Positions 4,575-57,307 of a DNA stretch of 64,000 nucleotides are shown one piece after another. The notes beneath the pieces were generated by a model. The model saw only the letters and a program-made list of their open reading frames with translations. It had not been told where the DNA came from and ran no database searches. The DNA comes from Candidatus Poribacteria bacterium (GTDB taxonomy: Bacteria; Poribacteria; WGA-4E; WGA-3G). Position numbers and translations under genes: made by a program. How positions within the stretch are numbered: position 1 is the first letter of the stretch; the number at the start of each line of letters is the position of its first letter. The stretch spans positions 56,896 through 120,895 of the forward strand of contig OZ219751.1 of the NCBI GenBank assembly GCA_964291315.2, read 5' to 3'.

Positions 4575-4612
4575 TATTACGTCCTAGCTGTCTTGCTTTG
4601 CTATAAAGATAG

Positions 4613-4703
4613 CGGGAGAGGGTGGGAGTCGAACCCACCTATCCACTTGCATGGACAAGCCGGTTTTGAAGACCGGTAGGGCCACCGGACCCTATCCTCC
4701 CCC
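4613..4703 (-). tRNA. selC: tRNA-Sec (anticodon UCA)
   Basis: 8-bp acceptor stem GGGGGAGG/CCTCTCCC, anticodon arm CCGGT-CTTCAAA-ACCGG, long variable arm, T arm GTGGG-TTCGACT-CCCAC, G discriminator. CCA is not encoded. Lies directly downstream of selB. Confidence 0.96.
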
Positions 4704-39096: not shown

Positions 39097-39270
39097 ATTT
39101 AACTTGGAAACCCTAATTCAATCTTTTTGTAGAAACGGGGGCAACTATTCAGAAACATTCTAACGTCATGTCTAACATTCCACGTTAATTTGTTCTGCTA
39201 AAATTAGGATGCCCCGTGTGGGGCTTTTTTAATTGACAAGCCCACGGATATGGTCTGGCGGAGGTGCAAA

Positions 39271-39642
39271 ATGCCAACAATTAACCAACTCATCAAAAAA
39301 CCGCGTAAACGGTACCGGAAGAAAACCAAGTCGCCGGTGTTGCAGCAGTGTCCCCAGCGGCGTGGTATCTGTTTACAAGTGAAAACAGTAACCCCTAATA
39401 AACCCAATTCGGCTTTGCGTAAGGTTGCTCGTGTACGGTTTACTTCTGGCTACGAAGCCACGTGTTACATCCCAGGAATCGACCACAACCTGCAAGAACA
39501 CTCGGTCGTTTTGGTTCGCGGTGGACGCGTCAAAGACCTTTCCAACGTCCGTTATCACATTGTTCGTGGCAAGTTGGATACTGCAGGTGTTGACAACCGC
39601 CGCCAAGGGCGTTCAAAATACGGTGCACGCAAACCCGGCTAA
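39271..39642 (+). CDS. rpsL: 30S ribosomal protein uS12 (atypical residues)
   Basis: MPTINQL, PNSALRK, HNLQEH, RSKYG. Confidence 0.98.
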
Positions 39643-39660
39643 ACAACGGAGGGAAAAAGC

Positions 39661-40131
39661 ATGCCGAGACGTGGAAATATTACAAAACGTGACGTTAACC
39701 CTGATGCAACTTACAATAGCAAACTCGTCTCAAAGTTTATTAACAGCCTCATGTTAGATGGAAAGAAAAGCACTGCTCAGGGTATCTTGTACGAGAGTTT
39801 TAAGATTATAGAGTCACGGACAAATGAAGACGGTTTTACTGTTTTCAAGCAAGCGATTAACAACGTCAAACCAGTATTGGAAATTCGACCCAGACGTGTC
39901 GGGAGCCAGACCTACCAGGTACCTGTTGATGTGAAGGCAGAGCGGAAACAACGATTGGCCTTCAGCTGGATTATCCAATCGGCACGTTCTCGCGGTGAGA
40001 GACGGATGGCTGAACGTCTCGCTGGGGAAATAATGGAGGCCTCGCGGAATGAAGGCGGCGCGATTCGTAGAAAAATGGATCAACATCGGATGGCAGATGC
40101 TAACCGCGCTTTCTCACATTATCGATGGTAA
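39661..40131 (+). CDS. rpsG: 30S ribosomal protein uS7
   Basis: MPRRG, DGKKS, YQVP, ANRAFSHYRW. Confidence 0.98.
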   Translation: MPRRGNITKRDVNPDATYNSKLVSKFINSLMLDGKKSTAQGILYESFKIIESRTNEDGFTVFKQAINNVKPVLEIRPRRVGSQTYQVPVDVKAERKQRLAFSWIIQSARSRGERRMAERLAGEIMEASRNEGGAIRRKMDQHRMADANRAFSHYRW

Positions 40132-40195
40132 AACCGTGAGCCCGGTCCTTGCACCACAATAGATTAAAAAATAAAATAATAGGAGTCACTCAACC

Positions 40196-42313
40196 GTGGC
40201 GGATAAAAAACAAAATACCCCACAGCGCTTGGAATTACCCCACATGCGAAACATCGGCATCATGGCGCATATTGATGCCGGGAAAACTACCGTGACTGAG
40301 CGGATCCTGTATTATACCGGTAGAGTTTATCGTATTGGTGATGTGGACGACGGCACCACCACCATGGACTGGATGGTCCAAGAGCAGGAACGCGGAATCA
40401 CAATCACTGCCGCTGCAACAACCTGCCAGTGGAAAAAACACCAAATTAACATTATCGATACCCCGGGGCATATTGACTTTACTGTCGAAGTCGAACGTTC
40501 ACTGCGTGTCCTCGACGGGGCAGTCGCCGTTTTCTGCGCAGTCGGCGGGGTCGAACCGCAATCTGAAACTGTCTGGAGACAGGCAGATAAATACGACATA
40601 CCTAGAATCGCCTTTGTTAATAAAATGGATCGAACCGGGGCAGATTTCTTCCGCACTATTGAAATGATGGAAGAGCGCCTGGGGGCCAACCCCATTCCGG
40701 TACAATTGCCTATCGGCTCAGCAGAACAATTCACTGGCATTGTTGACCTCATCTCAATGAAAGGACAAATCTGGAACGTATCTACAACCTCCGGACACGA
40801 CGGAAGTCTCGTCCAAGAAACCGACATTCCAGAAGAAATGCAGGAGATGGTCCATGAGTATCGTGAACGGATCCTCGAGTCTATTGCTGATACCGACGAA
40901 GAACTCTTTCACAAATACTTAGACGGTATTGAAATTTCACCAGAAGAAATTAAAGTAGGACTTCGTAATGGCGTGATCGCAGGCACAATTGTCCCTGTGC
41001 TCTGCGGGACAGCACTAAAAAATAAAGGTGTCCAACCGCTCTTGGACGCTATTGTTTCTTACCTTCCAGCTCCTACAGATGTCCCTGCTGTCATCGGTCT
41101 CAATCCACAGACACAGGAACAGGAGATACGGGAACCCAATGAAAATGATTCTTTCTGTGCACTAGCGTTCAAAATTACAACAGATCCGCACGTTGGAAAA
41201 CTCACTTACCTCCGTGTGTATTCGGGTGTTCTTCAGAAAGGTAATACGGTCTACAACAGTAAGACCGGCAAGCATGAACGGGTTGGACGTTTGATGAAAA
41301 TGCACGCGAATAAACGTGAAGAACATCAAGCCGTTTATGCAGGCGACATCATCGCAGCTATCGGGTTTAAAGACCTTTCAACTGGCGATACACTCTGTGA
41401 TCCGAAGGCGCATATCGCATTAGAAACAATGGTATTTCCGAGACCTGTAATGTCTATTGCTGTTGAACCTCGCACACAATCCGATATTGATAAGTTGAAT
41501 CTCGCCCTCTCAAAACTTGCAGAAGAAGATCCTACTTTTAAGGTACATCAAGATCCAGAAACAGGACAGACCTTGCTTTCCGGAATGGGTGAGCTTCACT
41601 TAGAAATCATCGTTGATAGACTTGTGCGCGAGTTTAATGTTTCAGCAAATGTTGGTAACCCAGAAGTCGCCTATCGAGAAACGATTCTTGACTCGGTTAC
41701 GTCTGTTGGCCGTTTCGTGCGTCAATCCGGTGGTAGAGGCCAATTCGGGCACGTTGTCATTGAAGTAGAACCTCTCGAAAAGGGGACCGGGTTTGAATTC
41801 ATCGATGAAACAAAGGGCGGAGTTATTCCACAAGAGTACATTCCAGCGGTGCAAAAAGGAATTGAAAGCGCTATGAATGCCGGAGTCCTTGCAGGTTATC
41901 CGGTGGTTGACCTATTTGTGAAGCTCGTTGATGGATCGCATCACCCTGTCGATTCCTCGGAAATGGCGTTCTCTATAGCGGGATCTATGGCTCTCAAAGA
42001 CGCAATGAAACGCGCTACGCCGACACTTCTCGAACCGATTATGAATGTTGAAGTGATCGTCCCTGACGAATATCTTGGCAAGGTCATCGGCGATCTAAAT
42101 GCCCGACGCGCGCAGATACGTGAAACGGAAGTGCAAGGAAAATCTCGCATTCAAGTCATTCGTTCTGATGTGCCACTTTCGGAAATGTTTGGTTACGTCA
42201 AAATACTTAGATCACTCACACAGGGTAGAGCTAACTACTCTATGGAATTTTCACATTATAACGAAGTCCCTGCCAGTGTAATGGAGGACTTAATTTCAGC
42301 AGGAAAATGTTAA
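40196..42313 (+). CDS. fusA: Elongation factor G
   Basis: [40 protein letters not shown]. Confidence 0.98.
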
Positions 42314-42532
42314 CTATTTGTGATGTGCCTGAATTGTAGAAGCTTAATCTCTTCCTATAAGCAGGTACTCTATTGATTAAATGAAACGGATTGCCGGATG
42401 CCAGCGCGTTTAGCAATCTTATAGAAACGGGATACGCAGTTTTAAGACAAAATTGCACATCTATAGTGAAAGTACTGAAAACCGCGTCTACGATACCCGA
42501 AATAACACAATTTTATTGGAGCTCGGACAAAA

Positions 42533-43741
42533 ATGGCTAAGGAAACGTTTGAAAGGACTAAGCCACACGTTAATATTGGAACAATCGGACACGTTGACCA
42601 TGGTAAAACAACTCTCACCGCGGCGATTACCATGGTGCTCTCTAAGCTTGCCAACGAAGATTACGTCATGGAGTATGACGAAATCGACAAGGCACCTGAA
42701 GAAAAAGAGCGTGGTATTACGATTAATACTGCACATGTAGAGTACGAAACTGAAAATCGGCACTATGCTCACGTCGATTGTCCAGGACACGCTGATTATA
42801 TCAAAAACATGATTACAGGAGCAGCACAGATGGACGGGGCAATCCTTGTTGTCTCTGCTGCTGATGGCCCCATGCCACAAACCCGTGAGCACGTACTACT
42901 CGCCCGACAAGTGAACGTACCATCCCTCGTTGTCTACCTGAATAAGGCGGATATGGTTGATGACGAAGAACTACTTGAACTTGTTGAGCTTGAGGTCCGT
43001 GAATTGCTAAGTGACTATGAGTTCCCTGGTGATGATATTCCTATTATCACAGGATCCGCCCTTCAAGCCTATGAAGAGATGGAGGGCAGCGGCGATCCCA
43101 ATAGCGACGCATGCACATCGATCCGTGAACTCATGCAAGCCGTCGATGATTACATTCCGGAACCTGTACGGGACATAGAAAAACCGTTCTTGATGCCGAT
43201 CGAAGATATCTTCACGATTAGTGGACGCGGGACAGTTGTCACAGGACGCGTTGAACGGGGCATTGTTGAAGTTGGAAACTCCGTTGAAATTGTAGGACTC
43301 CGTGAAACGCAGAATACAGTCGTCACAGGGGTTGAAATGTTCCGTAAACTCCTCAACGAGGGACGCGCCGGAGACAATATTGGAGCCTTGATCCGCGGGG
43401 TTGACCGCAATGAAGTCGAACGCGGTCAAGTATTAGCTGTTCCAGGAACCGTTCAACCGCATACGAAATTTGAGGCCGAAGCTTACATTCTTACAAAAAA
43501 TGAAGGTGGACGCCACAACCCGTTCTTTAGCGGATACCGCCCACAGTTCTATTTTAGAACAACGGATGTAACCGGACAAATGGAATTGCCTGAAGGCATC
43601 GAAATGATTATGCCCGGCGACAACGCAAAGATTACCGTTGAATTGTCTAAACCTATTGCGATGGAGGAGCAGCTCCGATTTGCAATTCGAGAAGGTGGAC
43701 AGACAATCGGGGCCGGCGTTGTCTCCAAAATTCTTGAGTAA
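42533..43741 (+). CDS. tuf: Elongation factor Tu
   Basis: [27 protein letters not shown]. Confidence 0.99.
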
Positions 43742-47661: not shown

Positions 47662-48537
47662 GTGGGACAAAAAACTCATCCGCGTGGATTCCGCTTAGGA
47701 ATCATTGAGACATGGGATTCGAAGTGGTACAGCGATCGGGATTACGCCAAATGGCTCCATGAGGATCTTCGGATTCAGGAGTTCGTCAAAAAGCAACTAG
47801 CACGCGCCGGGATTTCGCGCGTCGAAGTTGAGCGCGTGGCAGACCGTTGTAGTATTAATATCCATACCGCCCGCCCAGGTATCGTCATCGGCCGCCGTGG
47901 AGCAGAAACTGAAAAATTACAAGAAGCACTCCAGAAACACGTTGGATGTCCAGTGCAAATTAATGTATCAGAGATTAGGGCACCTGAACTAGATGCCCAA
48001 CTTGTGTCGGAAGCCGTCGCAACTCAAATAGAACGCCGCGCGAGCTTTAAACGGGTAATGCGGCAGAATATCACAAGTTCAATGCAATCTGGCGCGTTGG
48101 GCGTTAAAATCATGGTGAGTGGTAGATTAGACGGCAAGGAGATCGCACGCTCCGAATCCAGCCTTGAAGGACGAGTACCTCTTCATACCCTCAGGGCTGA
48201 TGTTGACTATGGGTTTACCGAGGCGGATACAACATACGGTAAAATAGGGGTCAAAACATGGATCTTCAAGGGCGAAATTATTGGGGTTCCAGATAAGTTA
48301 AAAGGCGAATCGGCTCCGCGGCGTCAATCCGGGCAGCGCGAAAATGCTAGATCTCAACGTTCAGCTCGGCGCCAATCGGATAGACGTTCTAGGCAATCTA
48401 GACAACAACAAGGCAGAGGACAAGGTTCAGCTCGGCGCCAATCAGATGGACCTTCTAGACAATCCAGACAGCGAGGCAGAGGGAGAGATCGGCCCCGACA
48501 ACGTCGAGACCGTAGCAACTCCGAAAATAGTTCATAG
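47662..48537 (+). CDS. rpsC: 30S ribosomal protein uS3 with Arg-rich repeated C-terminal tail
   Basis: MGQKTHP.GFRLG, RPGIVIG, PLHTLRA. Confidence 0.97.
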
Positions 48538-52974: not shown

Positions 52975-53487
52975 TTGCTCAAAGAAAAAATCAATCCTGA
53001 CGAATTTGAATTTGAAGAACACATGATTGCAGTCAACCGTGTTATGCGAGTTGGTAAAGGGAGACGCACTCCGAGTTTTAATTCCCTGACCGTTGTTGGT
53101 AATCGGGACGGTATTGTCGGTATCGGATTTGGCAGTGCAAGTGAAGTCCCTGGTGCACTCCGGAAAAGTTTTGCCGATGCCCGAAAAAATCTAATTCGGG
53201 TACCGATTGTCAACGGGACGCTCCCGCATGAAGTTGTCAGCGAATTCAAGTCTGCAAAAGTTTTGCTGAAACCGGCCAGCCCCGGAACAGGTATCATTGC
53301 TGGCCCCGCAACCCGTGCTATCTTAGAATACGCAGGGATCCGAGATGCGTTAACAAAATGTCTCTCCTCTCGGAACATGAAAAATATCGCTGAAGCCACT
53401 ATGCTAGGGTTGAAGCAGCTCAAGGATGTCAATGAGGTGGCACGGTTACGAGATATGTCGGTCGAAGAACTACTCAAAAGACGCTAA
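52975..53487 (+). CDS. rpsE: 30S ribosomal protein uS5 (atypical loop 2)
   Basis: VNRV, LTVVGN, LKPASPGTGIIAG; TTG start. Confidence 0.96.
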   Translation: MLKEKINPDEFEFEEHMIAVNRVMRVGKGRRTPSFNSLTVVGNRDGIVGIGFGSASEVPGALRKSFADARKNLIRVPIVNGTLPHEVVSEFKSAKVLLKPASPGTGIIAGPATRAILEYAGIRDALTKCLSSRNMKNIAEATMLGLKQLKDVNEVARLRDMSVEELLKRR

Positions 53488-56671: not shown

Positions 56672-57307
56672 ATGAGCAGATATTTAGATTCAGTCTGTAA
56701 ATTATGCCGACGGGAAGGCGAAAAACTCTTTCTGAAGGGGCGTCGATGCAGTGGTCCCAAATGTTCTTTTGAACGCCGCAGCTATCCACCAGGACAGCAT
56801 GGACAGACACCACCACGACGCGGACGCGAAAATAACTTCCGGAGGCAGTTACGCGCAAAACAAAAAGTAAAACGTACCTATGGTGTCTTTGAGAAACAGT
56901 TTCGTAACTATTACTTCAAAGCTGCTCGACAGAGTGGTATCGCTGGTGAGAATCTAATCAGTTTTCTTGAACGTCGCTTAGATAACGTCGTTTACCGACT
57001 CGGCTTCGCAACATCTCGAAACCAAGCTCGTCAACTCGTCAAACATAACCATTTTACTGTTAATGGCACGCGCGTTAACATTCCCTCCTACATAGTACAG
57101 GTTGGCGATGTCATAGCACCGCGCGAACGCAGTCGAAATCTCGCTGTTATTCTGGAGGCCTTAGAGTACGCACAGCATCGCGGCGCACCTGAATGGCTCG
57201 ATATCGACACCGAAAAAGCAGAAGGACGTGTTCAGGGAGCACCCGTGGTAGAGCAGATCTCCACAGACCTTGAAACACAACTCATCATTGAACTTTACTC
57301 TAGGTAG
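56672..57307 (+). CDS. rpsD: 30S ribosomal protein uS4
   Basis: CKLCRREG..LFLKG..C, PPGQHG, LERRLDN, ELYSR. Confidence 0.98.
   Translation: MSRYLDSVCKLCRREGEKLFLKGRRCSGPKCSFERRSYPPGQHGQTPPRRGRENNFRRQLRAKQKVKRTYGVFEKQFRNYYFKAARQSGIAGENLISFLERRLDNVVYRLGFATSRNQARQLVKHNHFTVNGTRVNIPSYIVQVGDVIAPRERSRNLAVILEALEYAQHRGAPEWLDIDTEKAEGRVQGAPVVEQISTDLETQLIIELYSR

Follow-up and report, generated by a model that had tools for sequence, protein, structure and literature searches.

Lineage-specific uS12 residues at the streptomycin and accuracy sites of Candidatus Poribacteria and companion changes in 16S rRNA and uS5

The rpsL gene and its altered codons

The DNA analysed here, a stretch of 64,000 nucleotides from a Candidatus Poribacteria bacterium that we call the window, contains the str operon in the order rpsL-rpsG-fusA-tuf, with rpsL at its head and the S10, spc, and alpha operons downstream (Table 1). 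The open reading frames of the operon neighbours encode uS7, EF-G, and EF-Tu. In a profile search the rpsL product matches PF00164 (Ribosom_S12_S23) with 116.8 bits at a cut-off of 22.3, and this is the only PF00164 match in the genome (4.4 Mb, 95% complete). Residues 1-122 are collinear and gap-free with several solved uS12 chains, with E-values down to 6e-59, and the stretch KPNSALRK with the PNSA motif is present. The alignment to RpsL of E. coli K-12 (locus L230) is gap-free as well, and E. coli numbering (Met = 1) can therefore be used directly. The rpsL product is a normal, functional, single-copy uS12 of Candidatus Poribacteria. Just 5' of the gene, at window positions 39196-39238, a GC-rich hairpin with a T run behind it (ggatgccccgtgtggggctttttt) is succeeded by TTGACA; this resembles a terminator belonging to the preceding gene and, after it, a putative -35 box.

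Table 1. Positions of uS12, its altered codons, and further features of the window
Feature	Position	Strand	Basis or remark
tRNA-Sec (anticodon TCA)	4612-4703	-	
Shine-Dalgarno-like GGAGGTG	39260..39266	+	4 nt before ATG 39271; read from sequence
rpsL (uS12, 123 aa)	39271..39642	+	ORF translation; start ATG 39271, stop codon 39640-39642; only genome copy
uS12 codon 43, AAT = Asn (E. coli K43; K42 in mature-protein numbering)	39397..39399	+	
uS12 codons 88-89, AAA (39532) GAC (39535) = Lys-Asp, both kept	39532..39537	+	
uS12 codons 91-92, TCC (39541) AAC (39544) = Ser-Asn; E. coli P91 G92	39541..39546	+	
rpsG, fusA, tuf (remaining str operon; ordinary gene context)	39661..43741	+	ORFs
rpsE (uS5), divergent loop 2 RVGKGRRTPSF	52975..53487	+	alignment to E. 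coli RpsE
uS5 Arg codon at E. coli G28 (second G of KGG)	53062..53064	+	translation and E. coli RpsE alignment
rpsD (uS4), f1-specific extra Arg after E. coli residue 47	56672..57307	+	

Textbooks present Lys43 and the Pro91-Gly92 turn as uS12 residues whose change has a cost in drug response, speed, or accuracy. An earlier reading of the window from its letters alone (the sequence-only reading) had claimed that this uS12 carries Asn43, Ser91, and Asn92 with Lys88 and Asp89 kept, which is correct to the base, and that the altered positions are the classical streptomycin and accuracy sites, with which the alignment to E. coli RpsL agrees. It had also considered a sequencing error unlikely, given that the step from Gly to Asn needs more than one base change. 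The number of changes is two (GGN to AAY), and because Asn43 is found in 77 and Asn92 in 168 species genomes, sequencing error is ruled out.

Concerning artefacts in general, whether errors of sequencing or assembly, wrong binning of the contig, or a degenerate extra copy of rpsL, the probability is close to nil. Most of the Poribacteria genomes used are metagenome-assembled and a few bins do contain foreign 16S contigs, which would nourish such a suspicion. However, the single rpsL belongs to an intact rpsL-rpsG-fusA-tuf operon, and the contig around it covers no less than the 64-kb window. The same uS12 residues occur in many closed single-contig genomes, and the tree and the alleles described below come from the same contigs. 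In addition, one study provides four public runs with contigs that span positions 39200-39700; two of these runs are possibly the source of the assembly. These contigs vary at five places (39235, 39351, 39360, 39426, and 39459) and agree at the codons in question: none of them has a variant in codons 43, 91, or 92, and canonical residues, which would speak against the sequence-only reading, did not appear in these contigs.

Distribution and history of the uS12 residues

The phylum was scanned in 176 species genomes with degenerate DNA patterns, and the matching DNA was read out. Residue 43 was readable in 171 of these and is Asn in 77, Lys in 76, Arg in 12, Thr in 4, and Ser in 2. All 77 genomes with Asn43 belong to the family of the window (f1), whose counts are 77 Asn, 21 Lys, 10 Arg, and 2 Ser (n=110). 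The genus g13 has Asn43 in 39 of 39 genomes read, and the Asn43 codons vary synonymously (AAC/AAT) among the 77 species. Asn92 is present in 168 of the 170 genomes with a readable loop 2, the exceptions being G084 and G089, which have Pro-Gly. Residue 91 is Ser in the families f1, f2, f6, f9, f10, and f11, Pro in f4, f5, f8, and the greater part of f3, and Ala in the R haplotype described below; family f8 also has Arg88. A separate observation concerns the genera g12 and g13 of f1, whose uS12 contains a two-residue insertion between the decoding loops at residues 59-63 (FTSSADEATCY; L032-L034; G160, G135, G140). The uS12 changes are inherited lineage traits and not the oddity of one genome. 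The altered uS12 can thus not be regarded as a peculiarity of the genome in which it was noticed, as Asn92 and the rRNA changes extend over the phylum.

A DNA scan for K43N in one genome per species (185,579 species) gave 90 matches, of which 80 were listed. The Poribacteria loop DLSNV is found in at least 65 of the 90 (65/80 among the matches listed). Ten of the 80 listed matches have a PG or TG loop and are scattered over other bacteria (Anaerolineae, Chloroflexia, Saccharibacteria, single actinomycetes, and proteobacterial and clostridial MAGs), and five are unclassified. K43N together with a canonical PG and a canonical uS5 occurs in the cultured Streptomyces aureus NRRL B-1941 and Nocardia inohanensis NBRC 100128 (L182, L189). 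As a wider background, 1.84 billion proteins clustered at 50% identity were used, of which the best 150 cluster representatives were taken, a quirky sample with many over-long gene calls. Among these 150, Lys43 is found in all 149 readable sequences, Pro-Gly in 143 of 145 readable, Lys88 in 128, and Arg88 in 15, and neither Asn92 nor Ser91 occurs. The sequence-only reading was thus right in calling the residues nearly invariant, and the uS12 alignment it had proposed across the phylum and the wider bacteria reveals residues that are lineage traits in Poribacteria and rare elsewhere, for Asn92 as judged from these 150 representatives.

Natural resistance-type ribosomal residues are of an already known kind. 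In a screen of 15,721 species, the available part of the preprint reports 88R in 830, 43R in 359, and anything else in only seven (Ngo, Letten and Engelstadter 2026, bioRxiv 10.64898/2026.06.09.731231). According to the same part of the source, the panel comprises eight high-confidence resistance alleles including 43N, and also 92D; Asn, Arg, and Thr are its three position-43 alleles, and the predicted intrinsic alleles concentrate in host-associated or slow-growing groups, e.g. Wolbachia and Planctomycetia (bioRxiv 10.64898/2026.06.09.731231). Poribacteria are absent from its main text in the part available, and the literature that we searched gave no account of the uS12 or 16S pocket in Poribacteria. 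As wild type, Poribacteria carry the panel alleles with predicted intrinsic resistance 43N (77 of 110 f1 genomes), 43R with 88R (12 genomes), and 43T (4 genomes). New here are the clade-fixed 43N, 92N, and 91S/A, the ties to 16S positions 526 and 915 and to uS5 residue 28, and the three haplotypes in one genus.

For the history of residue 43, the 20-kb region from rpsL to rplQ was fetched from 100 genomes, resulting in a tree of 101 tips. Orthologues of rpsG and fusA were recovered in 101/101 regions and those of tuf in 99. The flank tree was built from 23 neighbouring proteins without rpsL (4958 columns, FastTree LG+gamma) and rooted on f3+f4; seven tips have less than 60% of the columns. The Fitch state at the ancestor of f1 and at that of the window's genus is Asn, and residue 43 has changed 13 times on this 101-tip tree. 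Ser91 was already present in the background when K43N arose on the f1 stem. Within the window's genus, Lys43 was restored in a clade of 27 tips (21 Lys, 5 Arg, and 1 Asn; support 1.0). Inside this clade, G053 (Asn43, AAC) is sister to G021 (Lys43, AAA), and because the two are evenly diverged by about 2% throughout, their difference at residue 43 is a point change. Asn43 is ancestral in f1, and one clade of the genus later reverted to Lys43. The Ser43 of genus g11 is likewise derived from Asn, and in family f3 a Lys43 genome is nested among four Thr43 genomes. Residue 43 is therefore labile in Poribacteria, with Asn, Lys, Arg, Thr, and Ser all occurring.

In the genus of the window three haplotypes exist side by side, namely Asn43, Lys43, and the combination of Arg43, Lys86, Arg88, and Ala91 (R haplotype). 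The residues 43R/86K/88R/91A/92N are found together in 10 genomes of this genus and in 2 of f3, and at least seven separate origins of the block are needed to explain the flank tree. When four R-type genomes were each compared with their nearest relative, rpsL was found to be part of a tract 300-1000 nt long that shows 7-17 differences/100 nt. Past the tracts, on the downstream side, G060 is separated from G002 and G043 by about 1-5 differences/100 nt; the backbones of the G078/G011 and G008/G015 pairs are less even. These tracts suggest that the haplotypes may be exchanged between species by homologous recombination. The nucleotide tree of rpsL itself (six variable codons removed; 363 sites, low resolution) does not unite all R alleles. 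A recent transfer of the R haplotype from f3 into the genus is not supported by this low-resolution tree, in which the f3 alleles sit on a long separate branch and the R alleles of the genus fall into two groups. We infer from lability and exchange that this background constrains the residue weakly, that selection on the pocket fluctuates, or both.

Companion changes in 16S rRNA and ribosomal proteins

The 16S rRNA gene of the genome (G000:C4:3184339-3185890) was aligned to E. coli rrsB, an inspection that had been proposed together with the sequence-only reading. It is the same as E. coli at 523, 527, 912-914, and 1491-1493, and changes were found at 13, 18, 20, 505, 526, 915, and 917. G505A accompanies C526U, by which a G-C pair of the pseudoknot becomes A-U, C18A accompanies G917U, and U20C accompanies A915G; the last of these changes is U13A. 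A1410G with U1490C is also compensated and ordinary. Position 526 is U in 114, A in 4, and C in only 2 of the 120 Poribacteria genomes with a match. Its partner 505 is A or G across the phylum, resulting in an A-U, G.U, or G.A pair; C526U is in most cases accompanied by G505A. Positions 915-917 read GGU in 112 of 114 Poribacteria genomes. The sole genome with A915 (G103) has U20, and four others tested have C20 with G915; positions 20 and 915 thus covary. RsmG is found in the genome, and therefore a loss of m7G527 is no part of the explanation. In E. coli, A915G and changes of U13 themselves lower streptomycin binding. As far as the available part of the source goes, streptomycin touches C526 and G527, and C517U confers resistance in M. 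tuberculosis (PMC10525438); by our own arithmetic, C517 corresponds to E. coli 526 with an offset of 9. Streptomycin also binds 912-915, and mutations there weaken the binding, according to the accessible portion of another report (bioRxiv 10.1101/2021.09.14.460364).

Several further observations were made on the 16S genes. U534 of the 530 loop is changed to G (GGTAAGAC) in many g13 genomes, in g12, in f8, and in some others (e.g. G155, G158, G094, and G069). A526 together with G505, a G.A pseudoknot pair, is found in G104, G133, G134, and G078, two of which have the R haplotype and two Ser43, which hints that the state of 526 may follow the uS12 haplotype. Short contigs with C526 and a canonical 530 loop are present in Poribacteria bins (G049:C282, G049:C339, G056:C47, and G128:C232) and are probably foreign 16S fragments, thus bin contamination of G049, G056, and G128. 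A second partial 16S match (model 874-1520, 684 bits; L136) at G000:C4:3187074-3187722, about 1.2 kb downstream of the complete gene, has the same GGU at 915-917; a duplication of the 3' half or an artefact of the assembly may explain it.

Concerning the proteins, loop 2 of uS5 reads KGR (Arg28) in 74/74 f1 genomes and KGG in 19/19 non-f1 Poribacteria. With six, G129S among them, uS5 exceeds the other small-subunit proteins compared in its number of fixed changes specific to f1. Independently of this count, uS3 (rpsC, window 47662-48537) contains the family-specific fixed changes R131K, K135R, and G158D (E. coli numbering) at mRNA-entry residues. In Pseudomonas putida, the authors of a study available in part equate the uS5 change G29R, which was selected with spectinomycin, with the residue of G28D in E. 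coli, and report that it increases UGA and UAG readthrough and frameshifting (PMC12713390). An error-prone type uS5 substitution thus co-occurs in f1 with a restrictive-type uS12, as in a ram pair. However, R28 neither follows the loss of the restrictive allele nor accompanies that allele in the other carriers checked: it is kept in 17 Lys43 and 9 Arg43 genomes of the window's genus and is therefore independent of Asn43. All five non-Poribacteria K43N carriers checked have the canonical KGG, so that G28R was rejected as a general partner of K43N. K43N and G28R lie on one tree branch and must be counted as one event, and other substitutions share this branch. The suspicion that uS5 compensates for uS12 is weakened by the persistence of R28 in the clade with restored Lys43 and by its absence from these five carriers; a contribution of R28 to the buffering of K43N has, in our view, somewhat less than an even chance.

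In the 95% complete genome no RimO was found above the cut-off of 357. Two genes of the MiaB/RimO family score 292 and 247 and type as MiaB (478.5 bits, cut-off 355) and MtaB (419.1 bits, cut-off 357). With these two being MiaB and MtaB and no RimO detectable, Asp89 of uS12 is present and yet probably without its beta-methylthio-aspartate modification. The coexistence of the altered uS12 with selenocysteine recoding machinery, to which the sequence-only reading had drawn attention, is real in that the tRNA-Sec gene is there, and the tie goes nowhere beyond this co-presence.

Interpretation and likeness to known systems

At the place where the two loops of uS12 meet 16S rRNA lies the pocket for streptomycin, and the same interface closes upon acceptance of a correct tRNA. 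Because the uS12 changes are inherited across the lineage and are matched by changes in 16S rRNA and uS5, they look like a naturally rebuilt drug pocket. With a probability of about 0.7, the oddities of uS12 are part of a lineage-specific, layered remodelling at the site where loops 1 and 2 meet the 16S helices 1/2, 18, and 27. A first, phylum-wide layer consists of uS12 G92N and, in 16S, of C526U, A915G covarying with U20C, the C18A/G917U pair, and U13A. A second layer was added on the f1 stem, with uS12 K43N on the Ser91 background, uS5 G28R, and the inserted Arg of uS4. With the Lys43 contact lost, the Pro-Gly turn replaced, and positions 526 and 915 changed, streptomycin would bind poorly, and we consider it quite likely that these bacteria are intrinsically insensitive to streptomycin. 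The restrictive (slow, hyper-accurate) effect of K43N in enterobacteria is probably offset here, as the altered rRNA and the error-prone type uS5 Arg28 would keep accuracy near normal and not extreme; a hyper-accurate ribosome is accordingly an improbable prediction. Drug response and accuracy are judged in all these cases from alleles in distant bacteria with a different background.

The idea that changes elsewhere in the ribosome compensate for the altered uS12 has come out divided. Companion changes do exist (16S C526U/G505A, A915G/U20C, and U13A, and uS5 G28R in f1). However, Asn92 and the rRNA changes are phylum-wide and older than K43N, and are therefore a permissive background and not a repair after K43N. 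If this first layer already abolishes streptomycin binding, streptomycin cannot be what is selecting at residue 43.

Instead of a remodelling, neutral or near-neutral drift could be supposed: in slow-growing symbionts with weak selection for fast translation a costly K43N might have become fixed, and the companion changes would be unrelated lineage signatures, with no role for either drug or accuracy. The 13 changes of residue 43 on the 101-tip tree and the presence of Asn, Lys, and Arg in one genus fit such a weak constraint, as does the indifference of uS5 Arg28 to the state of residue 43. The alleles of Ngo et al. also pile up in host-associated or slow-growing Wolbachia and Planctomycetia, in the available part of that source (bioRxiv 10.64898/2026.06.09.731231). 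Nevertheless, 77 species have preserved Asn43 although its codon varies synonymously (AAC/AAT), among them 39 of 39 genomes read in g13, which means that it is maintained and not decaying. Residue 43 takes five states only, and Asn, Arg, and Thr are exactly the three position-43 alleles of the published panel, as far as seen from its available text. Furthermore, the rRNA changes are compensated in their base pairs, from which it follows that selection preserves the structure, and the four-residue R haplotype recurs as a block. Drift is thus a rather doubtful explanation of the whole.

It is also hard to make ongoing selection by decoding-centre-binding compounds, such as streptomycin-like aminoglycosides or other natural products of the sponge holobiont, account for all observations. 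The alleles would in this case spread by recombination. The independent classical alleles within one phylum (43N, 43R with 88R, 43T, and the 88R of f8), the at least seven origins of the R haplotype on the flank tree, and the divergent tracts of 300-1000 nt with 7-17 differences/100 nt around the R-type rpsL would be expected under such selection, and the pair of G053 (Asn43) and its sister G021 (Lys43) adds a point change. Yet the reversion of one clade from Asn43 to Lys43 would be odd under constant drug pressure, the phylum-wide changes of the pocket may already block streptomycin, and the rpsL nucleotide tree (363 sites, low resolution) does not join all R alleles. As the main cause, selection by compounds seems unlikely. 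The two explanations are not exclusive: drift fits the lability of residue 43, and compound selection fits the repeated classical alleles and the short tracts.

Coming back to the layered remodelling, a wider form of it can be formulated tentatively. The domain-closure/streptomycin interface of the Poribacteria 30S subunit would have been rebuilt in RNA and protein, with Lys43 becoming tunable and f1 representing a natural restrictive/ram pair. The three haplotypes would recombine between species because some factor of the sponge holobiont, either a compound that binds to the decoding centre or a shifting balance of speed against accuracy, selects on the pocket. That this holds in its full extent is rather doubtful. 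In any case, a phylum has replaced Gly92, one of its families has fixed Asn43, and one genus holds three haplotypes. This is a natural experiment in decoding-centre epistasis, which asks what changes in rRNA and uS5 make a restrictive allele tolerable. An intrinsic streptomycin insensitivity, if true, could aid the selective enrichment of these uncultured symbionts. The rRNA changes are also predicted to cause mismatches to the common 16S primer sites 515-533 and 907-926 and thus an under-counting of Poribacteria. Even the ordinary part alone extends the surveys of natural alleles, as far as their available text goes, by an undiscussed phylum and by the unscreened alleles 92N, 91S/A, 16S 526U, and 915G.

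The K42N allele (K43N in the numbering used here) has a restrictive phenotype in the classical literature. The rpsL K43N mutants of E. coli, Salmonella, and mycobacteria from laboratory and clinic have the same substitution at the same residue as f1. They differ in that the laboratory mutants carry a single change on canonical PG, C526, and A915, whereas in f1 Asn43 is wild type and stands together with Ser91/Asn92, an altered 16S, and uS5 Arg28. The otherwise canonical pocket of the classical mutants is not found here, as Ser91, Asn92, U526, A505, G915, C20, and A13 are all present. In the available part of Ngo et al., a fitness cost is attributed to laboratory K43N mutants in the discussion (bioRxiv 10.64898/2026.06.09.731231).

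A further likeness exists to the natural 88R/43R lineages (Planctomycetia, Sphingomonadales, Wolbachia, and others), which, in the accessible portion of their description, likewise have clade-fixed resistance-type rpsL residues with predicted intrinsic resistance, and some Poribacteria carry 88R or 43R+88R as these lineages do. In the survey of Ngo et al., as available, the low-cost 88R and 43R make up almost all cases, unlike in Poribacteria f1, which has 43N. Their panel, in the part available, is without P91S, P91A, and G92N, and the 16S positions 526 and 915 lie outside the screen (bioRxiv 10.64898/2026.06.09.731231).

Family f1 also resembles the pairs of restrictive uS12 with ram uS4 or uS5 (uS5 G28D in E. 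coli and G29R in P. putida) in that a restrictive-type uS12 is paired with an Arg at the loop 2 glycine of uS5. In the classical suppressor work, the laboratory ram allele was selected because of the restrictive allele. Unlike in those laboratory pairs, the uS5 Arg28 of Poribacteria persists where Lys43 is restored and is absent from 5/5 other K43N carriers. Finally, the rrs resistance mutations (C517U of M. tuberculosis and those at 912-915 of E. coli) concern the same nucleotides, 526 and 915, that are changed here. Unlike in the rrs mutants, the partner bases are changed in Poribacteria too (G505A and U20C), the pairs are mostly restored, and the changes are fixed in the phylum.
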